Assembly: GCA_033581555.1 (NCBI GenBank)
Contig: JAVQSZ010000005.1
Coordinates: 111,537 to 135,536 of the forward strand
DNA: 24,000 nucleotides
Origin: Nitrososphaerota archaeon
GTDB taxonomy: Archaea > Thermoproteota > Nitrososphaeria_A > Caldarchaeales > Calditenuaceae
Reading direction: 5' to 3'
Of this stretch, positions 782-23,603 are shown piece after piece. The first letter of the stretch is position 1. The number at the start of each line of letters is the position of its first letter. The notes under the pieces are model-generated. The model did no database searches, was not told where the DNA came from, and was given only the letters and a program-made list of their open reading frames with translations. The translations under genes and the position numbers were made by a program.

Positions 782-1336
782 GTGGAGGTAAGGGTCCTCG
801 AGTCGAGGAGGATCTACTCGGGGAGGACGGTGGGCCTGAGGGTGGAGAGGGTCTCGGTGGACGGGAGGGTAGTCCTCAGGGAGATAGTGGAGCACCGGGG
901 GGCAGCAGTGATAGTCCCGATCCGTGACGACGGAAGGCTGGTCCTGGTCAAGCAGTACAGGCGGCCGGTCGACGAGGAGGTCCTCGAGTTCCCCGCAGGG
1001 ACGCTCGAGCCCGGCGAGGACCCGGAGGGCTGCGCGAAAAGGGAGCTCCTGGAGGAGACCGGACACGAGGCCCTCTCCCTCGAGAGGCTCGCGACCGTAT
1101 ACCCCGCTCCCGGGTACTCGGAGGAGGCGATGCACCTCTTCCTGGCCAGAGCGGTCCCTAAAGGGGGTCTCGCGCTGGAGGACGACGAGGACCTGAGGGT
1201 CGTGACGCTGACGCTCGAGGAGCTGATCGGGATGGCGCTGAGGGGAGAGGTCAGGGACGCGAAGACGATCGTCGGCGCCTTCCTGCTGAGGGAGAGGTTG
1301 GGCCGAGGGAGCCAACCGGCGTCCGGGTTCCGGTGA
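782..1336 (+). CDS. Nudix hydrolase (ADP-ribose pyrophosphatase-like)
   Basis: Nudix box GTLEPGEDPEGCAKRELLEETGH (GX5EX7REUXEEXGU) within track ORF 713..1336. I prefer GTG 782 as start because of the TATA-like box at 753-758. A start at 713 would leave only ~30 bp for two divergent promoters. 713 remains the alternative. Confidence 0.85.
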   Translation: MEVRVLESRRIYSGRTVGLRVERVSVDGRVVLREIVEHRGAAVIVPIRDDGRLVLVKQYRRPVDEEVLEFPAGTLEPGEDPEGCAKRELLEETGHEALSLERLATVYPAPGYSEEAMHLFLARAVPKGGLALEDDEDLRVVTLTLEELIGMALRGEVRDAKTIVGAFLLRERLGRGSQPASGFR

Positions 1337-1371
1337 CACGTTTATCAGACGTCCCGGAGACACATCCGCGG

Positions 1372-2433
1372 ATGAAGGTAACCGCTGAGGACGTGCTGAG
1401 GGCGCTGAAGCAGGTGAAGGACCCGGAGCTCGGGGTCGACGTGGTGCAGATGGGGATGATCAAGGACCTGAAGGTGAAGGACGGCCACGTCTCCTTCACG
1501 CTCGAGCTGACCACCCCAGCCTGTCCCTACAACGAGGAGCTGAAGTCGGCGGTCCTAAAGGCCGTAGAGTCGGTGAAGGGCGTCGAGAGGGTCTCGATGG
1601 AGGTGAAGTCGAGGGTGCTGAGCGTCAGGCCCCAGAGCCAGGCCCTGAACCCGATACCCTCGGTGAAGAACGTGATCGCGGTCGCCAGCGGCAAGGGAGG
1701 GGTGGGGAAGTCCACGATCGCGGTGAACCTCGCCGTCGCGCTCTCGGAGGCGGGGGCCGCGACGGGCCTGCTGGACGCGGACGTCTACGGCCCGACCATA
1801 CCCAGGTTCATCAGGGGTTACGACTTCTCCTCGAGCGTCAGGGGCAACAAGGTCGAGCCGGCCAGGGGACCGCTCGGCGTGAAGATGATGTCACTCGGCT
1901 TGATAGTGACCGACGACACCCCCGTCATCTGGAGGGGGCCGCTCGTGGGGACGACCGTGAGGCAGCTGATCACCGACGTCGACTGGGGCGAGCTCGACTA
2001 CCTGATCGTCGACCTCCCGCCGGGCACCGGGGACGCGCCGCTGACGCTCGCTCAGACCGTCCCGCTGAGCGGGGTGGTGATCGTCACGACTCCGCAGAAG
2101 GCCGCGGTCACGATAGCGATGAAGGCGCTGAGGATGTTCCAGAGGCTGAACGTCAACGTCATCGGGATAGTGGAGAACATGTCCTACGTCAGGTGCTCCG
2201 ACTGCGGAAAGACGATCCGGGTCTTCGGGGAGAGCTACGCGAGGAGGGCAGCGCTGGAGGCCGGCGTTCCGCTCTTGGCCGAGGTCCCCCTGCTCGAGTC
2301 GATCCTCGAGGGGAGCGAGGACGGGACGCCAGTGATCGTGAGGGACCCGAAGTCCGAGGCCGCGGAGGTCTTCAGGGCACTCGCGAGGAGGGTCGCGGGG
2401 AGGGTGAGCGTCATTGCCGCCGGCGGAAGGTGA
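1372..2433 (+). CDS. mrp: Mrp/NBP35/ApbC-family Fe-S cluster carrier ATPase with N-terminal DUF59 (MIP18-like) domain
   Basis: DUF59-like N-terminus (LKQVKDPELGVDVVQMGMI...TTPACP), deviant Walker A GKGGVGKST, DADVYGPT, DLPPGTGD, and a CSDC (CxxC) motif near the C-terminus. ATG 1372 chosen. GTG 1333, in a GTGA overlap with the Nudix stop, is the alternative. Confidence 0.9.
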   Translation: MKVTAEDVLRALKQVKDPELGVDVVQMGMIKDLKVKDGHVSFTLELTTPACPYNEELKSAVLKAVESVKGVERVSMEVKSRVLSVRPQSQALNPIPSVKNVIAVASGKGGVGKSTIAVNLAVALSEAGAATGLLDADVYGPTIPRFIRGYDFSSSVRGNKVEPARGPLGVKMMSLGLIVTDDTPVIWRGPLVGTTVRQLITDVDWGELDYLIVDLPPGTGDAPLTLAQTVPLSGVVIVTTPQKAAVTIAMKALRMFQRLNVNVIGIVENMSYVRCSDCGKTIRVFGESYARRAALEAGVPLLAEVPLLESILEGSEDGTPVIVRDPKSEAAEVFRALARRVAGRVSVIAAGGR

Positions 2434-5907: not shown

Positions 5908-8640
5908 GTGGAGGGGTTGTCCGGGACCGAGGCGGAGTTCCACGCGCTCGAGGCGGAGGAGGTGGCTAGGCGGTTCAGGGTCGACCCTGCCAGGGGCCTG
6001 GACCAAAGGGAGGTCGAGGAGAGGCTGAGGAGGTTCGGCCCCAACGTGATCGTCGAGGCGAAGAAGCCGAGCCCGGTCCTGCTCTTCCTCAGGCAGTTCG
6101 CGAACCTGCTGATCCTGATCCTACTGGTCGCGACCACGATCACCGCCTTCCTCGGCGAGGTGATCGAGGCGGTCGTGATCGGCGTAATCGTCCTCTTCAT
6201 CGGCGTCGTGGGGTTCGTCCAGGAGTACAGGGCCGAGAGGGCGCTCGAGAGGCTGAAGGAGCTGACCGCCCCGACCTGCAGGGTCCTGAGGGACGGCGAG
6301 GTGGTCACGGTTCCGGCGCATCAGGTCGTTCCCGGCGACGTCCTGGTCCTCGGCGAGGGAGACATCGTGGCCGCCGACGGGAGACTCGTCGAGTCTCACG
6401 GGCTCAAGGTCGACGAGTCCGCGCTCACGGGGGAGTCGGTCCCCGTCGAGAAGGTGACCAGGGCCCTCCCCAGGGACGTCCCGCTCGGCGACAGGGTCAA
6501 CTCGGTCTACGCGGGGACGCTCGTCGTCTCAGGGCGGGGGAAGGCGGTCGTCACGGCGACCGGCAAGTCGACCGAGTTCGGGAAGGTGGCAGCGTACACG
6601 CTCGCGGTCGAGGAGGAGCGGACGCCCCTCGAGGCCAGGATGAACGAGCTTGGGAGGAAGTTCGGGCTGCTGGCCCTCGTGATCATCGCGGTGCTCTTCG
6701 TCCTGGAGCTCGCCGAGTCGCTGCTCTTCGGCGGCTTCACCCTCGAGTTCCTGATAGAGGTCTTCCTCTTCAGCGTCGCCCTCGCGGTCGCCGCGGTCCC
6801 CGAGGCCCTCCCGGCCGTCGTCACCGCGTCCCTCGCGATCGGTGCGTGGACGCTCGCGAAGCACGGCGCGCTGGTGAAGAGGCTCGCGGCGGTCGAGAGC
6901 CTCGGGTCGACGCAGGTGATGTGCTTCGACAAGACCGGAACCCTCACGAAAGGCGAGCAGACAGTCAGGGCCGTCTACGTCGACGGAAGGCTCCTCTCCG
7001 TGACCGGGACTGGTTTCAACGTCGAGGGCTCGATCGAGGGCGCCGACCGGAACTCGAGGGCCTTCGGGGAGCTGATGAGGGCCTCGGTCCTCTGCAACGA
7101 CGCGACCGTGACCAACGCCGACGGCAGGTGGAGGCACTCCGGCGACCCCACGGAGGTGGCCCTGCTCTTCATGGCCTTGAAGGCCGGCGTCGACGTCGAG
7201 TCGCTGAGGAGGGCTCACCCAAGGGTCTCTGAGAACCCGTTCACCAGCGAGCGGAAGATGATGTCCACGGTGAACCTCGTCGACGGCAGGAAGGTCGCGT
7301 TCGTCAAGGGAGCCCCCGAGGTCGTGATCGAGAGGTGCGTCGCGGCCCTCACCGGGAAAGGCGTCGTCCCGATGACACCCTTGATGAGGTCCGAGCTGAT
7401 TGAGGTCAACGAGCGGCTCGCGTCGGAGGGGATGAGGGTCCTCGCGTTCGGGTACAGGGACGCGGAGGGCGTCAAGGGCGAGGAGGCCGAGAGGGACCTC
7501 GTCTTCATAGGGATGGCAGGCATGATCGACCCGCCGAGACCCGAGGCGATCGAGGCGATAGGGGTGGCTAAGTCCGCGGGCGTGAAGCCCGTGATGATAA
7601 CCGGAGACCATAGGCTCACTGCGATCGCGGTCGCGAGGGAATGCGGCATCGATACCGAGCACGTCATGACCGGGAGGGAGTTGGACATGATGACGGCGGA
7701 GGAGCTCGCCGAACACATCGAGAAGGTGACCGTCTACGCGAGGACCTCCCCAGTCCAGAAGCTGAAGATCGTGGAGGGGTGGAAGCTGAAGGACGCGGTC
7801 GTGGCGATGACGGGAGACGGCGTCAACGACGCACCGGCGCTGAAGAGGGCCGATATCGGGGTCGCAATGGGGATAAGGGGTACTGCGGTCGCGAAGGAGT
7901 CCTCAGACCTGATCCTCACCGACGACAGCCTCGCCACGCTGGTGAAGGCGATCGAGCTCGGGAGGTGGATAATGGACAACATCAAGCGCTACCTCGCGTA
8001 CCTCCTCCAGGCGAACCTCGTCGAGATCGTCGTCCTCTCGTTCACCACCCTCTTCCTCCTCAGGTACCTGGGGTACTCGGGAGAGGAGGCCCTCGCCCTG
8101 CTCCCGGTCCACATTCTCTACATCAACTTGGCCACCGACGGTCTTCCGGCCCTCGCGCTCGGGCTCAGTCCTCCCGACCCGGACCTGATGAGGAGACCTC
8201 CGATGAAGAGGGGCGAGAGCGTCTTCACGAGGGAGGTCGTCGAGTTCCTGATCAGGGCGCTGATCGTTGAGCCTCCGGTCATGATACTAGCATTCTACTC
8301 GGCCCTCCCGAACGGAATCGACGCCGCGAGGACCAGGCTCTTCCTCCTCTTCGTCGCGATCGAGCTGGTGGTGGCCTTGAGCTGCAGGTCTCTGAGGCAC
8401 CCGATAGTGAAGGTTAGGCCCCACAGGTGGCTGGTGCTCGCGGTCCTGTGGGAGGCGGTCCTGATCGGCCTACTGGTCTGGATCCCCTGGACGAGGGAGG
8501 CGCTGCACCTGACCGTGCCGACGCTGGAGGACCTGACCTGGATCCTGGCCGGAGGCGCGGTGACCTTCGCGTCAATAGAGCTGCTGAAGCTCGTGGTGAT
8601 CTCGAGGCACTCGCAGGCCCAGCGGTTCAGAGCTTCCTGA
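5908..8640 (+). CDS. Cation-transporting P-type ATPase (type II, Ca2+/Na+-pump-like)
   Basis: TGES ([10 protein letters not shown]), PEALP in M4, phosphorylation site [15 protein letters not shown], hinge [21 protein letters not shown]. There are about 10 hydrophobic segments over 910 aa. Confidence 0.95.
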
Positions 8641-13672: not shown

Positions 13673-13788
13673 TGCGGGGGGTGGGATTCGAACCCACGAA
13701 CCCCTTCCGTCTGGCCGAGCCTACGGGGAGCGGCTGCCCCATCGCCGGATCTTGAGGCCGCCGCCGTTGACCGCTTGGCTACCCCCGC
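13673..13788 (-). tRNA. tRNA-Leu(CAA) carrying two introns (about 15 nt at 37/38 and about 17 nt in the variable arm)
   Basis: Reverse complement: GCGGGGG-TA-GCC-AAGCGGTCAAC-GGC-G-GCGGC-CUCAAG[AUCCGGCGAUGGGGC]A-GCCGC-UCCCCGUAG[GCUCGGCCAGACGGAAG]GGGUUC-GUGGG-UUCGAAU-CCCAC-CCCCCGC-A. The acceptor, anticodon and T stems all pair perfectly once the two insertions are removed. Exact intron borders are ambiguous by 1-2 nt. No encoded CCA. Confidence 0.85.
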
Positions 13789-15813: not shown

Positions 15814-15907
15814 GGGCCGGTAGATCAGCGGCAGATCGCCCGGTTCGCACCCGGGTGACGCGAAGGGCGTCCGGGAAAGGTCCGGGGTTCGAATCCCCGC
15901 CGGTCCA
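15814..15907 (+). tRNA. tRNA-Ala(CGC) with a ~22-nt intron
   Basis: GGGCCGG-UA-GAUC-AGCGGCA-GAUC-G-CCCGG-UUCGCAC-CCGGG-[UGACGCGAAGGGCGUCCGGGAA]-AGGUC-CGGGG-UUCGAAU-CCCCG-CCGGUCC-A. The G3:U70 alanine identity pair is present. The insertion contains its own hairpin GACGC-GAAGG-GCGUC. A duplicated CCGGG makes the exact intron position ambiguous: after the anticodon stem, or the canonical 37/38 site in another register. Confidence 0.85.
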
Positions 15908-15972: not shown

Positions 15973-16047
15973 CGGGCCCGCCGGGACTCGAACCCGGGAC
16001 CTCCGGCTCCGCAGGCCGGCGCCCTGTCCATGCTAGGCCACGGGCCC
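15973..16047 (-). tRNA. tRNA-Arg(GCG), intron-less
   Basis: Reverse complement: GGGCCCG-UG-GCCU-AGCAUGGACA-GGGC-G-CCGGC-CUGCGGA-GCCGG-AGGUC-CCGGG-UUCGAGU-CCCGG-CGGGCCC-G. It is 75 nt with all stems paired. Confidence 0.9.
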
Positions 16048-16070
16048 TCCGGTCGTCAACGCCTCTGCTC

Positions 16071-16080
16071 GTTTTATTAA
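16071..16080 (-). promoter_or_regulatory. TATA-like box for tRNA-Arg
   Basis: TTAATAAAAC on the minus strand, 24-33 nt upstream of tRNA position 1 (16047). Confidence 0.4.
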
Positions 16081-16218
16081 CTTCCCGAGACCTCCGGCGG
16101 CAGGTCCTGATCGCGCGCATCGCCCATCCCGGATACTCTCCCCTTATCGGAATGGAGTTAGGGGCTCGATGAGCTGACACCGCCACGCTCAACACGTGCG
16201 CGGCATAGTCGACGGGAA

Positions 16219-16274
16219 GCCTGATCAGATGCTGACGAAATGGGAGCAGAGGGCTGAAGTGATGGTGATCAGGC
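16219..16274. repeat. 9-bp perfect inverted repeat (GCCTGATCA ... TGATCAGGC) enclosing a 38-nt loop in a non-coding tract
   Basis: 16219-16227 is the exact reverse complement of 16266-16274. The loop contains CUGA and GUGAUGG-like elements, but no complete C/D-box arrangement could be built. Confidence 0.5.
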
Positions 16275-16427
16275 GGGTCCGAAGTCTTGCAGTTCCTCTA
16301 CTCTGTGAAGGACGGTGGTCTCTTACCGGGCCAAACCCCTCATCGCGCTCGGTGGTCAAAGGCAGCCTTTAATGGATTGAAAAGCGCCCGATCATTACGA
16401 TTATCGAACCAAAAAGAGTCTAGATTT

Positions 16428-16451
16428 GTTGTGACAACCGCACGTGGTGCG
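16428..16451. promoter_or_regulatory. Two adjacent palindromes upstream of the cstA promoter (candidate regulator binding sites)
   Basis: GTTG-TGA-CAAC (16428-16438) is followed directly by CGCAC-GTG-GTGCG (16439-16451, contains CACGTG). They lie about 55-80 nt upstream of the GATATAT box at 16506-16512. Confidence 0.3.
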
Positions 16452-16505
16452 CCATTCGGCAGATCTTCCAGGTTAAGCAACGCATTAACACAATGATCGT
16501 AAAAT

Positions 16506-16512
16506 GATATAT
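16506..16512 (+). promoter_or_regulatory. TATA-like box for cstA
   Basis: GATATAT, 26-32 nt upstream of ATG 16538. Confidence 0.4.
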
Positions 16513-16537
16513 GCCAGCAAGTGTCAGTACATGCGCA

Positions 16538-18292
16538 ATGGTGTTCGAGACGCCCTTCGGTATAACGATGGTCGGCATCGTGATATTCCTGTTGACGTTC
16601 TTCACGTACAGCAGATGGGTCGACAGGAGGGTCTGGAGCCCCGATCCGAAGAGGCCGACACCGGCGCACATGTACATGGACGGCGTCGAGTTCTTCCCGG
16701 TCTCGAGGTTCGTGCTCTACGGGTTCCAGTGGAACTCCATCGCAGCGTTGGGACCGATCCTCGGACCCGGAATAGCTCTGACCTTCGGGTGGCTGCCCGC
16801 GTTCCTCTGGATCGTATTAGCTGCCCTGCTGATCGGGTGGGTCCAGGACTACAGCTCGATGTTCCTCTCGGTTAGGAAGGAGGGGAGGTCCTTCGGTCCG
16901 ATCGCGTACGAGCTGCTGGGCCCGACGCCTAGGAGGCTGCTGCTCGGGTTCCTGCTCTTTTACTTGCTTTTGATCAACGCGGCGTTCCTCTTCGTCGTGG
17001 CGACCGTCGTGGACGCGTTCGCGGGCGCGTTCTGGTCACTGTTAGTCCTCGTGATAGCCGCGGTCATTACCGGCCACCTTCTCTTCAAGGTGAAGATGCC
17101 CGTGGTGCAGGTCACACTGATCGCGGTCGTGTTGCTCGCGATCGGAGTCGTCATCGGAGCCATCTTCAACTGGCCTCCGCCGGGGACGCTGGGCACAGCT
17201 CCCTACACGCTCTGGTACGTTCCGCTGATCGCGCTCCTGGTGGCCGGCGCGATCCTCCCCATGCCCCGGCTGATCACGCCCATGAACTACATCGCCTACT
17301 ACACGCTCTTCCCGGCGGTCATCATGCTCGCGGTTGGGGCCCTCGCTTCGATCGTGACTGGCGTGAAGGTCAACACCCCAGCGTTCACGTCGTTCTTCGG
17401 TCCTTTCGCGACCGGACCGCTGTGGCCGGCGTTGTTCGTGAGCATAGCTTGCGGCGCCATCTCAGGTTGGCACAGTCTGGTGAGCACCGGCCTGACCAGC
17501 AAGCAGATCGACGTCGAGACTGACGTGAGGCCCGTGGGCGCCGGAGCCATGCTGAGCGAGAACCTCGTGGGTCTAACCTCGCTCGCCGCTTGGATCGTGT
17601 TGCCTGCGGGGACCGCGGTAGCGCCCGCGAACTTCCCGAGGGGCGCAGTGACGCTGACCAGCCCGGTCTTCGGAGGAGCCGCTATGGCGCCTTACCTGGC
17701 GATATTCTTCGCTAGCTACATGGTCGGGATGGCCGTCACGATCCTGACTATCCTCGGGAGGTTCTGGAGGGTGACGATGGCCGAGATCTTCTCGGGGACG
17801 TCGCTCAACTTCCTCGGAAACAAGTACGTCGCGACCGTGCTGGGGTTCGTGCTGCCGGTGGCGTTCGTACTGACCGGTTCGTGGATCAACATCTGGCTAT
17901 ACTTCGGGGGCACCAACCAGCTGCTGGCAGGGTTCGCGCTGCTGATCGTAGGGCTCTACCTGTTCTCCCTCAGGAAGTTCCACTGGTACAGCACCATCCC
18001 GGGCCTCTTCATGATGGTGACGACGCTGGCCGCGATCGCCTGGCAGACCAACGTGTTCGCCACTGCGACCATCAACCCGGTCATCAGGAGGCCCGACGGC
18101 ACCATCGCCCCGTTCTTCCCGCAGCAGGCTCCGCTGCTCAACCTAGGAGGTCCGGGAGCGCTGACGGCGATCAACGCCTTCTCGACCGTGATGGGTATGA
18201 TCATGTTCGTGATCGGGCTGATGATGGCGATCTTCTTCATCAGAGCCTTCCTGAGGTACGCGAGGCAGCCGACTCAGCCCACCGCGACCTAA
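16538..18292 (+). CDS. cstA: Carbon starvation protein A (CstA) family transporter (peptide/pyruvate transporter family)
   Basis: Close motif-level match to E. coli CstA as I remember it: DPKRPTPAHMYMDGVEFFP, LYGFQWNSIAALGPILGP (cf. LFGHHFAAIAGAGPLVGP), GWVQDYSSMFLSVRKEGRSFG (cf. GAVQDFMVLFVSTRRDGRSLG), IACGAISGWHSLVSTGLTSKQ, NQLLAGFALL. ATG 16538 is preferred over the track start 16511 because of the TATA spacing. Confidence 0.9.
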   Translation: MVFETPFGITMVGIVIFLLTFFTYSRWVDRRVWSPDPKRPTPAHMYMDGVEFFPVSRFVLYGFQWNSIAALGPILGPGIALTFGWLPAFLWIVLAALLIGWVQDYSSMFLSVRKEGRSFGPIAYELLGPTPRRLLLGFLLFYLLLINAAFLFVVATVVDAFAGAFWSLLVLVIAAVITGHLLFKVKMPVVQVTLIAVVLLAIGVVIGAIFNWPPPGTLGTAPYTLWYVPLIALLVAGAILPMPRLITPMNYIAYYTLFPAVIMLAVGALASIVTGVKVNTPAFTSFFGPFATGPLWPALFVSIACGAISGWHSLVSTGLTSKQIDVETDVRPVGAGAMLSENLVGLTSLAAWIVLPAGTAVAPANFPRGAVTLTSPVFGGAAMAPYLAIFFASYMVGMAVTILTILGRFWRVTMAEIFSGTSLNFLGNKYVATVLGFVLPVAFVLTGSWINIWLYFGGTNQLLAGFALLIVGLYLFSLRKFHWYSTIPGLFMMVTTLAAIAWQTNVFATATINPVIRRPDGTIAPFFPQQAPLLNLGGPGALTAINAFSTVMGMIMFVIGLMMAIFFIRAFLRYARQPTQPTAT

Positions 18293-18308
18293 GTCTTTTC
18301 AGTCAACG

Positions 18309-18318
18309 TTTTTTAAAT
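18309..18318 (+). promoter_or_regulatory. Strong TATA box (TTTTTTAAAT) for the small-ORF/ArsA-like unit; its T6 run could also terminate cstA transcripts
   Basis: This is the only long A/T run in the 50-bp cstA to small-ORF gap, 24-33 nt upstream of ATG 18342. Confidence 0.45.
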
Positions 18319-18325
18319 GGTCCAC

Positions 18326-18337
18326 GTGAACATTCAC
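18326..18337. promoter_or_regulatory. Operator-like palindrome GTGAA-CA-TTCAC between the TATA box and the start codon
   Basis: GTGAA (18326-18330) and TTCAC (18333-18337) are exact reverse complements. The site overlaps a CACGTG hexamer (18323-18328) and sits where archaeal repressors typically block initiation. Confidence 0.3.
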
Positions 18338-18341
18338 TGGC

Positions 18342-18614
18342 ATGGGTAAGGGCGGTTTTCTTTCGTCGATGAAGAAGGCGCTGTCTGAGGTCACATACGG
18401 AGCCGCGCTGCACGGTCAGGTCTCCGCGGTCCTCAAGACGAGGATGTACATCGAGCACATGTTCATACTGATGATACTGGGCGACATGCTAGGGTTCCCG
18501 ATACTCCCGCCCTACTACTCGCTGAGGCTGCTGCCGTACGCAGTCCCCAACGTCAAGGCTTGGAAGCACAGGTTCTACAGGGAGAGGGACTTCACCGACG
18601 TGATCTACGGGTGA
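18342..18614 (+). CDS. Small (90 aa) hydrophobic protein; possible divergent YbdD/YjiX (DUF466)-like CstA partner with an inserted hydrophobic segment
   Basis: Coding-type codon bias. Motifs YIEHM and FYRERDFTDVIYG(stop) parallel YVEHM and FFRERQDARYGG of E. coli YbdD/YjiX (recalled from memory), in the same order. The gene lies directly downstream of cstA, as ybdD does. The central segment MFILMILGDMLGFPILPPYYSLRLLPYAV is hydrophobic. Its stop TGA 18612-18614 overlaps GTG 18611. Confidence 0.6.
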   Translation: MGKGGFLSSMKKALSEVTYGAALHGQVSAVLKTRMYIEHMFILMILGDMLGFPILPPYYSLRLLPYAVPNVKAWKHRFYRERDFTDVIYG

Positions 18615-19612
18615 TTCGGGTGGCCTGGGGCTTAAGGGACGTAGTCCTGAGGGACGGAGGCCCCCGGATGGTCATCTTCGCGGGAAAGGGAGGCCTCGGG
18701 AAGACGACGAGCAGCGCAGCCCTTGCGTACGCCGCGGCCCTCTCCGGCAAGAGGGTGCTCTGCTTCAGTACCGACCCGCAGGCCAGCCTCAGCGACATCT
18801 TCGAGCGGGACATCTTCGGGAAGGGCGAGGTCGAGGTGGCCAGGAACCTCTACGTCGTCGAGATAGACGCAGACGCGAAGATCAGCGCCTACATAGCAGA
18901 GGTGAAGCAGAGGATCAGGGACATGTACAAACTCGAGGAGATCCCGGCCGAGATCGAGGCCTACATCGACAGCTCGGTCGCGGAGCCCGCGATGTACGAG
19001 TCAGCGACTTACGACGCGATGGCCGACTACCTCGCGAGGGGCGACTACGACCTGTACGTCTTCGACATGCCGCCCTTCGGTCACGGGATCAGGATGCTCA
19101 CGATGGCCGACGTCCTGACCAGCTGGGTCGAGAAGCTCACGGAGGTCCGTGAGAAGGCCAGGGAGTACGACGAGATCGCGAGCAGGCTGAAGGGCGAGAG
19201 GCTGATCAAGGAGGACGAGATCCTGAACGAGCTGAAGGCCATCAAGGACAAGCTGACGACCTTCACCGACTTCATGAGGGACAAGACAAAGTCAGCCTTC
19301 TTCATGGTCATGACCCCCGAGATGATGTCCGTCCACGACACCGAGAGGGCCCTTCAGGCCTTCAGGTCGATCGGCCTCACCCTCTCCGGGATAGTCCTGA
19401 ACAAGGTCCTCCCGAAGGAGCTCGGGTCGAACCCGTCGCCGTACATCTCCTACAGGTACAAGCAGCAGGAGGCGGTCCTGAAGGTGATAGAGGAGAAGTT
19501 CGGGGACCTCGTCGTCGCCGCGATCCCGATGTTCCCGAGGGAGCCGAAGGGCCTCGAGGGGCTGAAGGAGGTCGCCAAGCACCTCGTCGACGGGGTGACG
19601 AGGGTGTGGTGA
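18611..19612 (+). CDS. ArsA/Get3-family P-loop ATPase, subunit 1 (catalytic motifs mostly intact)
   Basis: Deviant Walker A AGKGGLGKTT. The ArsA/Get3 switch I region reads FSTDPQASLSD (cf. STDPAHSLSD). Switch II reads FDMPPFGHGIRML (cf. DTAPTGHTLRLL). GTG 18611 is chosen because of the GTGA overlap with the small ORF and because the RDGGP segment before the P-loop is shared with subunit 2. ATG 18668, preceded by GGAGG at 18656-18660, is a strong alternative. Confidence 0.85.
   Translation: MIRVAWGLRDVVLRDGGPRMVIFAGKGGLGKTTSSAALAYAAALSGKRVLCFSTDPQASLSDIFERDIFGKGEVEVARNLYVVEIDADAKISAYIAEVKQRIRDMYKLEEIPAEIEAYIDSSVAEPAMYESATYDAMADYLARGDYDLYVFDMPPFGHGIRMLTMADVLTSWVEKLTEVREKAREYDEIASRLKGERLIKEDEILNELKAIKDKLTTFTDFMRDKTKSAFFMVMTPEMMSVHDTERALQAFRSIGLTLSGIVLNKVLPKELGSNPSPYISYRYKQQEAVLKVIEEKFGDLVVAAIPMFPREPKGLEGLKEVAKHLVDGVTRVW
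18648..18664 (+). repeat. 17-mer TGAGGGACGGAGGCCCC, copy 1 (16/17 identical to 19610-19626)
   Basis: Direct comparison of the two regions preceding the P-loops of the tandem ATPase genes. Confidence 0.8.
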
Positions 19613-20607
19613 GGGACGGCGGCCCCATAACCGGGGAGCACAGGTTCGTCTTCGTCGGAGGAAAGGGGGGCGTCGGGAAGACGGTACTCGCGGCCGCGTT
19701 GGCCTACGACGCGACGCTCCACGGCAAGAGGGTGCTACTGGCGAGCCTCAACCCAGTCCACTCACTCACGAGCCTCTTCGGTCAGGACCTAGCGGGCGGG
19801 AAGCTCACGAGGATCGAGGGCGCTGAAGGCCTTGACGCGATCGAGGTCGAGATAGATGACCTAGTCCGGGACTATAAGGCCAAGATGACCGGGAGGCTGA
19901 GGGAGTTCTTCAGGTGGGCGGAGGTCCCCATCAACCCCGATCCTTTCATAGAGGTCGCGACGACGAACCCAGCCTTCCACGAGTCCGCGATGTTCGACCG
20001 CGTGATGGACCTCATCCTCGAGGCGGGAGGGAAGTACGACCTGGTGGTCTTCGACACTGCTGCGGTCGCTAACGCGGTGAGGTTGATCGGGCTCAGTAAG
20101 CTCTACGGCCTCTGGCTCGCGAGGATGATCCAGTCGAGGAGGGAGGCGCAGCAGTTCAGGCTCAGCCTCTCCTTCAGGAAGGAGAAGGTGATGGAGGAGA
20201 TCAAGAGGGACCCGGTGATCGCGGACCTCATCGCCCTCCACGAGAAGTTCACGAAGACCAGGGAGGTGATAACTGACCCGAAGCTCACGGGCTTCTACTT
20301 CGTAACGACTCCTGAAAGTCTGCCGATCTCCGTCGTGGTGAGGTTCATCAAGATGGTTGAGGCCTTCAACATCCCGGTAGGCGGTGTCTTCGTGAACAAC
20401 GTGATCGACGCCTCCGAGGCGTCCTCCGACCCCTCCGGGTACCTGTCAGCTAAAGTGGAGGAGCAGCGCAGGTACCTGAAGATGATCGCGGAGCAGATGG
20501 GCGACAAGGTGAAGGGCTACGTGAGGTCGTTCCCGAGCGAGGTGAGGGGCATCGAGGCCTTGAGGGCTGTCGTCGAGGACCTGAGGGGCTACAGGCCGAG
20601 CTTCTGA
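19606..20607 (+). CDS. ArsA/Get3-family P-loop ATPase, subunit 2 (degenerate switch I/II, probably non-hydrolytic)
   Basis: Walker A is intact (GGKGGVGKT). Switch I reads ASLNPVHSL, with Asn in place of the catalytic Asp of TDPAH. Switch II reads FDTAAVANAVRL, so the P-T-G-H of DTAPTGHT is lost. GTG 19606 overlaps the subunit-1 stop (19610-19612) by 7 nt. No other canonical start exists before the P-loop. Confidence 0.85.
   Translation: MVRDGGPITGEHRFVFVGGKGGVGKTVLAAALAYDATLHGKRVLLASLNPVHSLTSLFGQDLAGGKLTRIEGAEGLDAIEVEIDDLVRDYKAKMTGRLREFFRWAEVPINPDPFIEVATTNPAFHESAMFDRVMDLILEAGGKYDLVVFDTAAVANAVRLIGLSKLYGLWLARMIQSRREAQQFRLSLSFRKEKVMEEIKRDPVIADLIALHEKFTKTREVITDPKLTGFYFVTTPESLPISVVVRFIKMVEAFNIPVGGVFVNNVIDASEASSDPSGYLSAKVEEQRRYLKMIAEQMGDKVKGYVRSFPSEVRGIEALRAVVEDLRGYRPSF
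19610..19626 (+). repeat. 17-mer TGAGGGACGGCGGCCCC, copy 2
   Basis: See 18648-18664. Here the TGA is the stop codon of subunit 1. Confidence 0.8.
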
Positions 20608-20623
20608 CCCCGGTCCGAGGGGT

Positions 20624-21094
20624 TTGAGGAGGAACAGGTTCGACCTCTTCACCGGCAACATCGTCATCGGGACTTACAGGTTCCTCACGCTGGTCCTGCC
20701 GGAGGGCTGGGCGGTCCAGAGGAGCAGGGCGCCCTCGGACATCTACTACACCGGCGTCGTGCAGGGGAAGGGCTGGGTGACGGAGGGCTACGCGCACTAC
20801 TACCTCACGAACCTCGTGACCGGCGAGCGGTACGACCTCCTCATCGAGGTCAAGAAGGGCGCGAAGGGCGTGGACCTGACCGAGCAGTCGGAGCTCACGA
20901 CGTTCTCCGGCCACTCCGCCTCCGTCAGCAAGAGGGTCTACTCCGTCGGCCTCTTCAGGAAGAGGGAGGTCAGGGAGGTTACCATCAAAACCGCCTGCCA
21001 GCTGACCTCGAGGACGATCGCGATCCAGATCAGCTCCCAGGAGGACCTGCCAAGTGAGGTCCTGGAGGCCCTCTCGGAGTCGGAGTGCCACTAG
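20624..21094 (+). CDS. Hypothetical protein (156 aa, predicted mostly beta, C-terminal SESECH)
   Basis: Strong G/C third-position bias in this frame. TTG 20624 is preceded by GAGGGG (20616-20621), 17 nt after the ArsA-like subunit 2 stop. I recognise no motif. Confidence 0.6.
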   Translation: MRRNRFDLFTGNIVIGTYRFLTLVLPEGWAVQRSRAPSDIYYTGVVQGKGWVTEGYAHYYLTNLVTGERYDLLIEVKKGAKGVDLTEQSELTTFSGHSASVSKRVYSVGLFRKREVREVTIKTACQLTSRTIAIQISSQEDLPSEVLEALSESECH

Positions 21095-21117
21095 TCCCCT
21101 GAGTTCCGGAGGAACGG

Positions 21118-21124
21118 CTAAAAC
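21118..21124 (+). promoter_or_regulatory. TATA-like box (CTAAAAC) for the 207-aa membrane-anchored protein gene
   Basis: 23-29 nt upstream of GTG 21147. It resembles the GCTAAAAAC element at 703-711. Confidence 0.3.
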
Positions 21125-21146
21125 CGGCTGTACCTTCAGAACGGGC

Positions 21147-21770
21147 GTGGATGTCGACCCGCTGTACGTCGTCGCGGCCATCGCGGTCATCCTGATCGCC
21201 CTCTCGATCGCCGGGAACGTGGCAGGTAGGAGGAGGGTCGACGCGGCGGTAATAGCGGTGGTGGACGCGGTGAGGTCGCTGGGCGGCGAGCTGAAGCTCG
21301 TCGGGAGGACCTCCTCCGCGGCGCTCCTTAAGGGATCCGGGCTCAGGCCGATGAAGGAGTTCTCGGTCATGATAGGCCTCGTCCCCAGGGGGAGCCCCCT
21401 CGCCCTCCTGGTCGCGAAGCTCGCCGGCAGGAAGGACCTTGTGATGATAAGGGGCGCCTTGGAGAGCGAGCCTCCGATGAACATCGCGGTCTTCGCGAAG
21501 GGTGCGGGCGTCGAGAGGCACGCGAAGAGGTGGGGGAAGGAGGTCAAGGACCTGGGAGGGCTGGTCGTCGCCTACGACGGCGCGGACCTTCAGCTCGACC
21601 TCTCGAAGCTGGAGCCGCTCCGGAGCACCGGCGCCATCATGCTGGCCCTCCGCGACCACCTCCCTCACGTCTACGCTTACATCAGCCTAGAGTCCGACAT
21701 CAGGTCCTCTCTCTCCGCGGTCCTGACCGGGCTCAACGAGCTCCAGAGGGCGGCGCGGCGGGGTACTTAG
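21147..21770 (+). CDS. Hypothetical protein with a single N-terminal transmembrane anchor (about 207 aa)
   Basis: From GTG 21147: MDVDPLYVVAAIAVILIALSIAGNVAGRRR..., a TM helix followed by a positive patch and a soluble domain. Coding-type codon bias. The track start 21054 would overlap the preceding gene by 41 nt and add an Arg/Ser-rich extension. No recognised motif. Confidence 0.6.
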   Translation: MDVDPLYVVAAIAVILIALSIAGNVAGRRRVDAAVIAVVDAVRSLGGELKLVGRTSSAALLKGSGLRPMKEFSVMIGLVPRGSPLALLVAKLAGRKDLVMIRGALESEPPMNIAVFAKGAGVERHAKRWGKEVKDLGGLVVAYDGADLQLDLSKLEPLRSTGAIMLALRDHLPHVYAYISLESDIRSSLSAVLTGLNELQRAARRGT

Positions 21771-21786
21771 CGGCCCGTTCCAAAAG

Positions 21787-21794
21787 CCTTATCA
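21787..21794 (+). promoter_or_regulatory. TATA-like box (CCTTATCA) for the 140-aa thioredoxin-fold-like gene
   Basis: 25-32 nt upstream of ATG 21819. Same CCTTAT core as 751-756. Confidence 0.3.
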
Positions 21795-21818
21795 CCGATC
21801 CGGTGCGTGAGACGGCAG

Positions 21819-22241
21819 ATGGCAGGCTCGATCCAGCTGAGGGTCGTCTTGCTCGACGTCTACCCGACGCAGCTGGGCCACTGCCCGCACTACAATCTGG
21901 TCTCGTCGCAGATGATGGCGGCGGGCTCCGAGTTCTGCGAGCTCTCCTCCCAGGCCCTCGAGTACCCGCAAGAGGTCATCGAGAGTCACAGGAGGGCACT
22001 CGCGGTCTTGAACGTCCTGAGGAGGGCCCTGGACGGAAAGGAGGTCAACGTCGAGGTCGAGATGGTCGACGCGCTCTCCCCCAAGGGCTTCCTGCTCTCC
22101 CTCAGGTACGGCGTGAGGGGGAATTTCGCGGTCGTCGTCAACGGGAAGAAGGTCTACGACGGCGAACCCAGCGTGGAGGCCGTCGAGCGTGCGCTTGAGG
22201 ACTACGTCTCGGAAGCGTTGAACCTCAGGCGTGTGAGTTGA
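21819..22241 (+). CDS. Hypothetical protein with thioredoxin-fold-like pattern (Thioredoxin_3/ArsD-like) lacking a CxxC pair
   Basis: An N-terminal beta strand is followed by a lone Cys (LRVVLLDVYPTQLGHCPHY). The C-terminal GNFAVVVNGKKVYDGEPSVEAVERALEDY resembles the xPALVINGKVVxxGxxPSxEEI end of small thioredoxin-like proteins and the LPLLLLDGETVMAGRYPKRAEL end of ArsD. This is pattern recognition only. ATG 21819 is preferred over GTG 21807. Confidence 0.55.
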   Translation: MAGSIQLRVVLLDVYPTQLGHCPHYNLVSSQMMAAGSEFCELSSQALEYPQEVIESHRRALAVLNVLRRALDGKEVNVEVEMVDALSPKGFLLSLRYGVRGNFAVVVNGKKVYDGEPSVEAVERALEDYVSEALNLRRVS

Positions 22242-22599
22242 CGATAGAGGCGAAGAGAATCCGCGAACCCTCTTCACCAGGGGACGGCTTCAGGGTTCTC
22301 GTCGACAAACTGTGGCCGCGATGCCTCCCGAAGGACACCGCGAAAGTTAACGCCTAGTCGAAGGAGCTGGCGCCGTCGGATGAGTTGAGGGGGTGGTTCG
22401 GTCGCGATCAGTCGAAGTGGTGGAGTTCGAGCACGAGTACTTCACTGGACTGAAGGGCAAAGAGGACCTGTTGGAATGCATCCGTGAGATGGAGAGGAGA
22501 CACGGAGTCGTAATCCTGCCCTTCGCGGCGAGAGGTGTGCATCGCGACGCCGCGGTCGCGCTGCTTGAGTACCCAAGCCGCGGAAGATCTCACCCGTAA
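22238..22599 (+). pseudogene. DUF488-family gene inactivated by an in-frame TAG and a 1-nt deletion
   Basis: Frame A from TTG 22238 reads TIEAKRIREPSSPGDGFRVLVDKLWPRCLPKDTAKVNA*SKELAPSDELRGWFGRDQSKW. The TAG at 22355-22357 sits where DUF488 proteins have Trp (TGG). The homology then continues in the -1 frame from ~22420: VEFEHEYFTGLKGKEDLLECIREMERRHGVVILPFAARGVHRDAAVALLEY (track ORF 22393..22599). The junction tgg-tgg-ag is consistent with loss of one g from tgg-gtg-gag. Confidence 0.75.
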
Positions 22600-23603
22600 G
22601 TCCTCACGACCTTCAGCCAGTCCCTCATCCTTATCTTCATCCCGTACCGCTTCTCCCTCAGCTTCATGTGTATGAAGATCGAGATCAGCAGCCAGACGTC
22701 CGGTATCGTCCGGTACTCCCTCCTGAACTTCTTCCTGATGAACTGGAACGCGCGGTAATAGGGCATGAAGAACGACCTCAGGGCCTCCTCGTATTCCCCG
22801 AGCCTCGAATCCGAGAGCAGCTCGGTCAGTATCTCCGCGTTCTGCATCCCGGGGATGATGCCCTCCCCCAAGACGGGGTAGACCGCTCCGACGCTCTCAC
22901 CCACCCCGACGACCTTGTCGTCCCTCACTGGCATGGCCAGGTGCGGAGGCGTGATCCTCACCGGCCTCCCTACCGTCGCGAGGACCTCGCCCTCGTGCCT
23001 CGAGACGAACTCGTTCAGGACCTGGACGTGCCGCTTGTAGTAATCTCCGGCCCCGACGTGGGCCAGTCCGTCACCGAGAGGGAAGTACCACAGATACCCG
23101 GAGAGGGGCTTGAGGGGTCTGACGTAGAAGTCGTCGAGGGGCGGGTCCCTGTACTTCACGAGGTACTCGAGGCTCGGGATGAAGTAGTCCCTCTCGGGCC
23201 TCGGGAGGAGGGTCCTGTGGAACCCGGTCGCGTCCACGACCAGGTCGCCGTCGGGCCGGTCCGTCCTCCTCACCTCGGCGCCGTACAGCACCCTGATCCG
23301 TTTGTGCAGGTCCAGTATCAGCCTCCTCTTGTCGAAGGTGCAGAGGCCCTTGAGGGGGACCTCGACCACCCCGTGGCCCAAGTCTACGGCCATTCTCTTC
23401 CCCACGTGGAGCACGTACTCGTCGAACTCCAGGTCCACGGCCTCGAGGAGCCTACGCATCTCGTGGTAGCTGGTCCCCCAAGCGCAGACCGCCTTGAAGC
23501 TCTCCGGTTTCTGCCTCTCGAGGACGATGACCTCGTGCTCGTCCGAGAGCAGGTTCGCGAGGTAGCTCCCTACTATCCCGCCCCCCGCTATCGTGACCCT
23601 CAT
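22590..23603 (-). CDS. FAD-dependent oxidoreductase, geranylgeranyl reductase-like family
   Basis: N-terminal Rossmann dinucleotide motif MRVTIAGGGIVGSYLANLL..VIVLER, LVVDATG, and a later GESVGAVYPVLGEGI (GD/GE-x-A FAD motif). ATG 23603 lies ~27 nt downstream of TAATAAT (minus strand of 23627-23633). Confidence 0.75.
   Translation of the reverse strand: MRVTIAGGGIVGSYLANLLSDEHEVIVLERQKPESFKAVCAWGTSYHEMRRLLEAVDLEFDEYVLHVGKRMAVDLGHGVVEVPLKGLCTFDKRRLILDLHKRIRVLYGAEVRRTDRPDGDLVVDATGFHRTLLPRPERDYFIPSLEYLVKYRDPPLDDFYVRPLKPLSGYLWYFPLGDGLAHVGAGDYYKRHVQVLNEFVSRHEGEVLATVGRPVRITPPHLAMPVRDDKVVGVGESVGAVYPVLGEGIIPGMQNAEILTELLSDSRLGEYEEALRSFFMPYYRAFQFIRKKFRREYRTIPDVWLLISIFIHMKLREKRYGMKIRMRDWLKVVRTYG

Follow-up and report, generated by a model that had tools for sequence, protein, structure and literature searches.

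Gene clusters in which a CstA-family carrier is accompanied by single-domain homologues of the ATPase ArsA were described by Castillo and Saier in 2010 (PMC2963123), who collected from SEED contexts 26 cases of cstA with an ArsA-homologue gene, 24 of them with a gene for CstX, a protein of about 90 amino acids (aa) with a single transmembrane segment (TMS). In these clusters the ArsA homologues are single-domain proteins of about 330 aa, and adjacent pairs that are 25-31% identical occur in Pyrobaculum arsenaticum and Symbiobacterium thermophilum (cluster 15), while CstY, a single-TMS protein of about 210 aa, was listed for five archaea. The same authors reported that arsenic genes are never present in the clusters, that CstX is never found without CstA, that CstA and the ATPases co-evolve, and that all single-domain homologues lack the three ArsA cysteines and have an "SXD" aspartate replaceable only by Asn. 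In their proposal, the ArsA homologue supplies CstA with energy and CstX connects the two. Here we analyse a locus of seven same-strand genes, beginning with cstA, in a 24,000-nucleotide (nt) stretch of a Nitrososphaerota archaeon of the order Caldarchaeales (GCA_033581555.1, contig JAVQSZ010000005.1, positions 111,537 to 135,536; hereafter, the window). Judged by its sequence, the locus is a member of this CstA-CstX-ArsA homologue-CstY module, which is defined bioinformatically; a literature search on CstX, CstY, DUF7990 or CstA with an ArsA-type ATPase in archaea found no later paper and no experimental follow-up.

An earlier note on this DNA had stated that no CstA/ArsA-like system was described. 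That statement was wrong, because the cstA-cstX-ArsA homologue-cstY clusters had been reported in 26 genomes by Castillo and Saier, together with the same energiser proposal. What the present analysis adds is the universal Asp-to-Asn exchange in the second ATPase, two accessory families, CstY-like genes in bacteria, a division of the module into a core and an optional layer, and a putative internal cstX promoter in Caldarchaeales. Two precedents are also relevant to the module: ArsA is described in PMC12415280 as docking on the carrier ArsB, and pyruvate uptake by E. coli CstA depends on the small protein YbdD (PMC5847655).

In order to examine the conservation of the gene set, the GTDB species representatives were scanned with a CstX alignment, which yielded at least 570 loci, and the best 79 were analysed, their genes being assigned by iterated hidden Markov models (HMMs) on six-frame open reading frames (ORFs). 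These 79 loci are the ones closest to the window CstX, and the sample is skewed to close relatives. The order cstX, ATPase-1 (A1), ATPase-2 (A2) is invariant in all 79, in archaea as well as in bacteria (Caldarchaeales, Bathyarchaeia, Thermoplasmata, Asgard, Sulfolobales, Symbiobacteriaceae, Anaerolineae, Syntrophia and others), and cstX is always the gene directly upstream of A1 (72 adjacencies). Each of cstA, A1 and A2 is present in 23 of the 23 complete loci (at least 5 kb of flanking sequence on both sides); overall, cstA was found in 68 of the 79, and all 11 loci without it have less than 3 kb of sequence on one side. The carrier gene is directly upstream on the same strand in 52 loci, divergent in 8 and convergent in 7. 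The tie of the ATPase pair and the 90-aa protein to CstA, which the earlier note had proposed, was thus borne out by the neighbourhood analysis. Moreover, the distance matrices are strongly correlated (n = 59; CstA-A1, r = 0.92; CstA-A2, r = 0.89; A1-A2, r = 0.93), in line with the co-evolution seen by Castillo and Saier, and the mean identities of CstX (0.67), A1 (0.58) and A2 (0.58) exceed that of CstA (0.46). On this genomic evidence, CstX, A1 and A2 are an inseparable unit dedicated to CstA.

The remaining genes of the locus are less constant, and their counts are lower bounds, the accessory families being fast-evolving. Of the 23 complete loci, 20 contain a member of the 207-aa family, 16 one of the 156-aa family and 8 one of the ~140-aa family, and 19 have a second CstX copy (X2). 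Of 63 loci with cstA, A1 and A2, 34 have X2 and the 207-aa and 156-aa genes together, and nine lack all of CstY, X2 and the 156-aa gene. On the basis of these accessory counts, the module can be divided into a four-gene core (cstA, cstX, A1, A2) and an optional layer. In Thermaerobacter composti the genes follow the order CstA, DUF7990, ArsA-like, ArsA-like, then the 156-aa and ~140-aa homologues, with the 207-aa homologue and a second DUF7990 paralogue on the opposite strand; in Candidatus (Ca.) Caldarchaeum subterraneum the same genes are all present and differently arranged.

Several local peculiarities were observed among the loci. In one Ca. Caldarchaeum subterraneum assembly (L001) cstA is separated from cstX by a 562-aa glycosyl-hydrolase-like gene of opposite orientation (6246-7934, minus strand). 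Another assembly of the same organism (L002) is without this gene and has its A2 broken into ORFs of 115 and 204 aa, by a frameshift or an assembly error. In two Asgard loci (L071 and L074, Thorarchaeota/Promethearchaeota) the ATPase pair is surrounded by three or four members of the CstX family, where one or two are usual. Extra P-loop ORFs labelled A1 by the HMMs occur a few kb from the module in L064 (2-772, minus strand) and L077 (16142-16993, minus strand); at least one of them is MinD/Mrp-like (GKGGVGKS, no STDP) and hence does not belong to the module.

Both ATPases, of about 333 aa each and about 28-30% identical to one another, score above the cut-off of TIGR00345 (GET3_arsA_TRC40 subfamily; 231 and 179 bits, cut-off 135). 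The 156-aa, 207-aa and ~140-aa proteins of the window gave no match above cut-off in Pfam or NCBIfam. The closest solved structures are the archaeal Get3 homologues 3zq6 (A1, 6.6e-54) and 3ug6, with PDB E-values of 6.6e-54 and 1.1e-41, and the alignments extend through helices 7-9 and the helical subdomain, including the TRC40-insert region. The motifs of A1 are intact (GKGGLGKT, STDP, and DMPPFGH as the DxxPxGH switch II), and the switch-I aspartate (DP) is kept in 73 of 74 family members. We take D57 of yeast Get3 to lie within this STDP motif. D57 is catalytic in yeast Get3, and the D57N variant binds ATP without hydrolysing it (PMC12506534). In A2, SLNPVHSL is aligned to STDPAHSL of 3ug6, with Asn at the position of the catalytic Asp, and NP is found in all 69 family members; its switch II is degenerate (FDTAAVANA), with AVAN in place of PTGH in the 3ug6 alignment. 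As A2 always has Asn at the catalytic position, the pair probably has one working site.

We infer that A1 and A2 form a heterodimer in which A1 would be hydrolytic and A2 ATP-binding but inactive, because the two genes are always adjacent and overlap, their distance matrices are correlated as given above, the ATPase activity and the groove of Get3 require dimerisation (PMC6593721), and precedents exist in the ArsA pseudodimer and in Rv3679/Rv3680. The CXXC zinc motif is absent from both sequences, the position being SPYISY in A1 and PSGYLSA in A2; some functional Get3 homologues are also without CXXC (PMC6593721). The groove-forming regions contain 5 Met in A1 and 4 in A2, compared with 12-13 in archaeal Get3s, and apart from this Met count the hydrophobicity and charge of the groove regions were not discriminating. 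Against the BagA and BagB models of NCBIfam, A1 scored 50/42 and A2 48/35, below the cut-offs of 400/521, and both ATPases are far below the NosAFP equivalog cut-off.

The features that characterise ArsA itself were not found in the pair. The ArsA equivalog TIGR04291, which has a cut-off of 650, gave scores of 103 and 83, and none of the ArsA metalloid cysteines (C113, C172 and C422 of E. coli ArsA) is present in A1 or A2. A2 has no cysteine at all, and the single Cys of A1, in VLCFSTDP, precedes switch I and lies outside the metalloid site; an ArsA-type metalloid mechanism is not supported on these grounds. The ArsA motif DTAPTGHT is partial in A1 (DMPPFGHG) and lost in A2 (DTAAVANA). As every ArsA-specific feature tested failed, the locus does not encode an ArsAB pump. 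The earlier note was right that ArsB and Acr3 are missing from the window: the profile search of its sizeable ORFs found no ArsB, Acr3, ArsR or ArsD domain.

The small protein CstX was assigned to DUF7990 (PF25952) through the precomputed annotations of its homologues: 736 were found, and all 120 listed carry PF25952. Identity among those listed begins at 59% and reaches 83-91% in the closest, with 60-62% to members from Bacillota and Chloroflexota, and the product is 100% identical to its counterpart in a Ca. Caldarchaeales metagenome-assembled genome (MAG; L008). The alignment has 29 invariant columns. The sole hydrophobic stretch of CstX (residues 37-68 of 90) is marginal, with a Kyte-Doolittle maximum of 1.68; it holds G-D-M-x-G-x-P..PPYY, and the residues invariant in or near it are G47, D48, M49, G51, P53, P56, P57, Y58, Y59, P65, Y66 and P69. 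A polar tail, F-Y-R-E-R-D-F-T-D, follows in a region with conserved W74, R77, E81, D83, T85 and D86. Because of the invariant Pro, Gly, Asp and Tyr inside the hydrophobic stretch, CstX looks like a specific interface and not like a generic membrane anchor.

CstX and X2 have weak matches to the NCBIfam model cory-CC-star (1e-6 to 1e-9; window CstX, 5e-7). E. coli YbdD (locus L087, cstA-ybdD) has Cys-Cys at its C-terminus and is recognised by the KCU-star selenoprotein model, not by cory-CC-star; a motif F-[FY]-R-E-R near the C-terminus is common to CstX and YbdD. A homology of CstX and YbdD was not established, as hhalign gave a probability of 1.8% and aligned only the 8-residue FYRER/FFRER segment, and no YbdD-like ORF was found in 86 loci. 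The paralogue X2, present in L005, L016, L020, L022, L028, L050 and others and absent in the lineage of the window, has His as its last residue in most cases, often as part of a His-rich tail (EHAPHIH). This tail and the Cys-His end of the co-occurring 156-aa family suggest a metal-binding or redox site formed by C-terminal tails.

The window CstA matches Pfam PF02554 with 346.5 bits (E = 3.9e-103, cut-off 27) and belongs to the CstA family (TC 2.A.114). It is 70% identical to the Ca. Caldarchaeum protein, 43% to that of Thermaerobacter and 26% to E. coli CstA, and its score with NF011590, the equivalog of the E. coli pyruvate/H+ symporter CstA, was 158 bits, compared with a cut-off of 1188; it is thus a family member and not an equivalog. 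Whereas E. coli CstA has 701 aa and three extra blocks, the window protein is without those blocks. No solved structure was detectable by sequence for the CstA family or for CstX.

Among the accessory proteins, the 207-aa one has a Kyte-Doolittle 19-residue maximum of 2.55 at residues 8-26, followed by GRRR; by the positive-inside rule, this GRRR after the anchor makes a cytoplasmic position of its ~180-aa domain probable. Homologues occur in Ca. Caldarchaeum (34% identity, 2.6e-25) and Thermaerobacter. The protein fits the CstY of Castillo and Saier (PMC2963123) by size, single TMS and context, a match made by description and not by sequence. In the bacterial loci the CstY-like, 156-aa and thioredoxin-like (~140-aa) families gave no NCBIfam match.

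The 156-aa protein of the window has no Pfam or NCBIfam match at all. Its family comprises 71 representatives among 1.84 billion proteins, mostly stand-alone and of about 130-200 aa; a few long proteins match it in short stretches only. An AlphaFold2 model, built on only 5 sequences, is all-beta with ten strands (predicted local distance difference test score, pLDDT, 75; predicted TM-score 0.70), and its fold matches are weak (Tsi3, PsbP, Mog1 and SciW/EagT6; best E = 7.7e-4, TM-scores 0.4-0.5). The C-terminus is CH in 32 of 50 ORFs, with CH a few residues from the end in most of the others, and an internal Cys is conserved too.

For the ~140-aa protein, 16 homologues were detected, with C22, P23, H24 and C40 invariant (GHCPH...EFCE); the motif is CPHY, not CxxC. 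Its AlphaFold2 model has a pLDDT of 77.6, but below 50 around the motif, and shows the thioredoxin order of elements, with CPH placed after strand 1 in this low-confidence loop. All Foldseek matches have a thioredoxin fold and are weak (PDI, ERp46, ERp44 and thioredoxin; E 0.016-0.4, TM-scores 0.35-0.5), and the match to Pfam Thioredoxin_3 (0.015) is below its cut-off. The analogy to ArsD that the earlier note had drawn for this protein found no support: there was no ArsD match in Pfam or NCBIfam at E <= 0.1 and none among the top 50 Foldseek matches of the model, and the family is present in only the minority of complete loci counted above.

The features of the locus are collected in Table 1. 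All seven plus-strand genes named by the earlier note are present, as judged from ORF calls and Pfam/NCBIfam profiles; their tight spacing was confirmed (overlaps, otherwise at most 52 nt), with minor start-site corrections only.

Table 1. Genes and putative promoter elements of the cstA locus (window coordinates).
Feature	Position	Strand	Description
TATA-like box TAAAATGATATAT	16500..16512	+	AT-rich, 26 nt before the cstA ATG; putative cstA promoter, read from sequence
cstA	16538..18292	+	CstA-family membrane carrier, 584 aa; Pfam PF02554
TATA-like box TTTTTTAAAT	18309..18318	+	24-33 nt before cstX
cstX	18342..18614	+	90-aa small protein, strongly conserved; Pfam DUF7990/PF25952
ATPase-1 (A1)	18611..19612	+	Single-domain Get3/ArsA-class P-loop ATPase, catalytic motifs intact
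ATPase-2 (A2)	19606..20607	+	A1 paralogue, P-loop intact, Asn for the catalytic Asp
156-aa gene	20624..21094	+	Soluble all-beta protein (predicted), C-terminal Cys-His; recurrent accessory family
207-aa gene	21147..21770	+	Single N-terminal transmembrane anchor, then a ~180-aa domain (probably cytoplasmic); agrees with CstY as described
~140-aa gene	21819..22241	+	Soluble, weakly thioredoxin-like; GHCPH...EFCE motif; sporadic accessory

The ATG start of cstA is supported by the N-terminus MVF(E/D)TPFG, common to the Ca. Caldarchaeum homologue. The ORF of A1 opens at 18560, and GTG 18611 is its likely start because it overlaps the cstX stop as GTGA; A2 in turn overlaps the end of A1 by 7 nt, and 16 nt separate A2 from the 156-aa gene. 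The 207-aa form of the membrane-protein gene starts with GTG 21147. For the last gene, which may begin at 21807 or 21819, ATG 21819 was preferred because the database homologues are 140 aa long; its product is 100% identical to a protein in a "Thaumarchaeota archaeon" MAG.

Promoter-like elements were also inspected. Of the TATA-like boxes that the earlier note had placed at 18309, 21118 and 21787, the first stands and the other two, which have no match to YTTAWA, are weak. The sequence TTTTTAAA of the box at 18309 occurs once in the 24 kb, with 0 occurrences expected, and the box is kept upstream of cstX in the related Caldarchaeales loci L008, L009, L013/14 and L017. It is probably an internal promoter for cstX, A1 and A2, and possibly for the 156-aa gene. 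The spacer of ~490 nt upstream of cstA (16048-16537, bounded by a tRNA-Arg gene) contains the TATA-like box before cstA, only short, overlapping ORFs on both strands and no Rfam family match; it is poorer in GC (0.58 in 16001-17000) than the sequence further upstream (about 0.66), the window as a whole ranging from 0.58 to 0.68.

The rest of the window is occupied by housekeeping genes (NUDIX, Mrp/NBP35, MoaE, LeuA-like, P-type ATPase, SBDS, ABCE1, MscS, ArgRS and tRNAs), so that the gene set does not stand out as part of a mobile island. A second P-loop NTPase of the window (1333-2433, plus strand), which adjoins MoaE, matches ParA/NUBPL (1.7e-91) and has an FeS_assembly_P domain; it was rejected as an ArsA-like relative, being an Mrp/NBP35-type Fe-S cluster carrier. 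The sequence upstream of cstA also contains three tRNA genes (13673-13788, minus strand; 15814-15907, plus strand; 15973-16047, minus strand). The one at 13673-13788, of 116 nt, presumably bears an intron and was detected by Rfam and missed by ARAGORN; the tRNA-Ala(CGC) gene, of 94 nt, is likewise intron-sized. Downstream of the module, the convergent gene at 22590-23603 (minus strand) may encode a geranylgeranyl-reductase-family flavoprotein, according to weak, sub-threshold matches, and is not kept beside the module in other loci.

The scheme that we favour, built on gene content, linkage, motif states and predicted folds, is that CstX, A1 and A2 form a peripheral ATPase complex which docks on CstA via CstX, helped by CstY, and which drives or gates transport; we give it a probability of about 0.45. 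In this scheme, A1 and A2 would assemble into a Get3/ArsA-type heterodimer, both subunits would bind ATP and A1 alone would hydrolyse it, A2 thus being a natural counterpart of Get3 D57N. CstX, presumably co-translated with A1 and A2, would bridge ATPase and CstA at the membrane by means of its conserved hydrophobic hairpin and polar tail, and the membrane-anchored CstY and the 156-aa beta protein may assist docking or regulation. ATP-driven closing and opening of the dimer would then drive or gate the uptake of a solute by CstA, which we suppose to be pyruvate or small peptides. The overlaps of the A1 start with the cstX stop and of A2 with A1 support a coupling of the three genes. An energising or gating role was preferred to one purely in assembly because CstX is strictly constrained, because CstX, A1 and A2 are more conserved than CstA, and because of the ArsA-ArsB and CstA-YbdD precedents.

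Several points weigh against the energising or gating scheme. The sequences nearest to the ATPases are 3zq6 and 3ug6, both archaeal Get3 homologues, and not the pump-driving ArsA; moreover, the ATPases keep the TRC40-insert region. E. coli CstA and BtsT function with no ATPase of this kind; they are classed as secondary carriers, and BtsT is a H+/pyruvate symporter according to PMC7730263. The contact of CstA, CstX, A1 and A2 is deduced from genomes, the mirror-tree correlations are inflated by shared phylogeny, and the sampled loci are those nearest to the window CstX, so that distant relatives may behave differently. In addition, cstA appears to have its own promoter and lies on the opposite strand in some lineages, and it would not always be co-transcribed with the ATPases.

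The two possibilities raised by the earlier note, that the pair energises or regulates CstA or assembles membrane proteins in the manner of Get3, remain the leading hypotheses. According to the second, which we consider unlikely but worth serious attention, the A1-A2 heterodimer captures the hydrophobic segment of CstX or X2 in a Get3-like groove and delivers these small proteins to the membrane or assembles them with CstA there, with CstY as the receptor and the 156-aa protein acting as a chaperone before targeting; the role of the ATPase would be to build the transporter and not to run it. The Get3-like structural matches and their extent through helices 7-9 agree with such a private biogenesis pathway, and the layout of CstX, with its single hydrophobic stretch, is tail-anchor-like. 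However, this stretch is only marginally hydrophobic and rich in invariant Pro, Gly and Asp, whereas targeting signals are usually degenerate, and the Met content of the groove is less than half that of archaeal Get3s. The Get3 of Thermococcus kodakarensis (TkGet3), although without CXXC, binds tail-anchored proteins, as PMC11170914 states with reference to Suloway 2012; the cluster is listed for this organism in PMC2963123, and TkGet3 is probably the CstA-linked Tko1 of cluster 14 there. The anchor and large domain of CstY would suit a receptor, and the model of the 156-aa protein is weakly similar to the transmembrane-helix chaperones SciW/EagT6 and to Mog1. These fold matches are poor, however, and the nine loci without CstY, X2 and the 156-aa gene would have to do without receptor and chaperone; a two-subunit ATPase for one or two clients of 90 aa would also be costly.

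Other explanations find less room in the data. An ATPase pair of the BagAB type, acting as a stress or energy-state chaperone or switch that guards against the toxicity of an imported carbon source or senses ATP/ADP, and merely co-regulated with CstA, is improbable in our view. The matches to the BagA and BagB models are weak but real (1e-11 to 1e-13), PDB 6bs3 is matched in chain B (6.3e-7) and marginally in chain A (2.3e-6, no significant stretch), BagAB is summarised in PMC10597346 as shielding mycobacteria from glycerol and nitric oxide toxicity, and a separate putative promoter of cstA would suit co-regulation. Nevertheless, the best equivalog scores (50 and 42) are far from the cut-offs, and a near-universal linkage with cstA in three gene orientations, with CstX never seen without CstA in PMC2963123, is hard to obtain from co-regulation alone. 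Very improbable is a literal analogue of ArsA-ArsB-ArsD, in which the thioredoxin-like and Cys-His-tailed proteins pass a metal, metalloid or thiol-reactive ligand to the ATPase for pumping through CstA. The conserved Cys and His residues of the 156-aa, thioredoxin-like and X2 proteins (in X2, HAPHIH) and the CC end of E. coli YbdD, with its KCU-star match, could be read in this way. Yet the proteins that bear them are accessory and missing from minimal loci, no similarity to ArsD was found, the ATPases have no cysteine at the ArsA positions, as reported in PMC2963123 for single-domain homologues in general, and arsR, arsB and acr3 are absent from the window and from the clusters of that study. 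That the genes are chance neighbours was refuted by the neighbourhood analysis and is left with a negligible probability: only the up to three candidate promoters in the window would speak for it, while the same set is found again in the 79 loci, which span numerous phyla of archaea and bacteria, and its core order does not vary.

If the ATPase pair drives or gates CstA, this would be the second known coupling of a Get3/ArsA-class ATPase to a carrier, after ArsAB, and the archaeal and bacterial species with such a coupled carrier would number several hundred at the least. A function would also be gained for the many prokaryotic "Get3 homologues" now read only through the eukaryotic tail-anchor pathway, and the built-in D57N-like subunit would offer a natural system for the study of asymmetric SIMIBI ATPase cycles. 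A broader and rather doubtful extension is that CstA-CstX-A1/A2 constitutes a distinct and ancient class of ATP-coupled transporter, made up of a Get3-type heterodimer with one permanently "ATP-locked" subunit, an extremely conserved 90-aa adaptor and a carrier that elsewhere is a simple symporter; the optional layer (X2 with its His-rich tail, the Cys-His beta protein and the CPH thioredoxin-like protein) would place it under additional metal or redox control. A further consequence may be that CstX, cory-CC-star and YbdD/KCU-star belong to a single superfamily of small subunits that CstA carriers require.

Compared with described systems, the locus resembles E. coli CstA-YbdD in that a CstA carrier relies on a small protein encoded next door; the E. 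coli system, however, has no ATPase partner, and YbdD belongs to PF04328/KCU-star, not to DUF7990. BagAB of M. tuberculosis (Rv3679/Rv3680) likewise consists of two adjacent Get3/ArsA-like ATPase genes with heteromeric products (PDB 6bs3), but is only distantly related to the window pair (NCBIfam scores of 42-50 compared with 400-521; PDB E-values of about 1e-6). With Get3/TRC40 the pair shares the best sequence matches, the helical subdomain with the insert region and, in A1, the catalytic Asp. Whereas Get3 is a homodimer with many clients, here a pair of paralogues is tied to one carrier and one small protein; as the pair is apparently heteromeric, without CXXC and with one dead site, it is not a canonical Get3. 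With ArsAB the locus shares an ArsA/Get3-class ATPase of two homologous halves and, as its genetic neighbour, a protein of the secondary-carrier type, hence the idea of a carrier made ATP-dependent; but in ArsA the halves are fused (~580 aa) and here they are two genes, the carrier is of another family, and ArsD, ArsR, ArsB and Acr3 do not occur here. The 156-aa Cys-His family, the thioredoxin-like protein and the Asp-to-Asn exchange of A2 are not part of the description by Castillo and Saier, and CstY-like genes, for which their list gave five archaea, are found here in bacteria too. Their module and the window agree in gene set and sizes: CstA, a CstX of about 90 aa, two adjacent ArsA homologues of about 330 aa and a single-TMS, CstY-like protein of about 210 aa, with no arsR, arsB or acr3, and the S. 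thermophilum locus L050, from the organism of their cluster 15, has the same gene order as the window.

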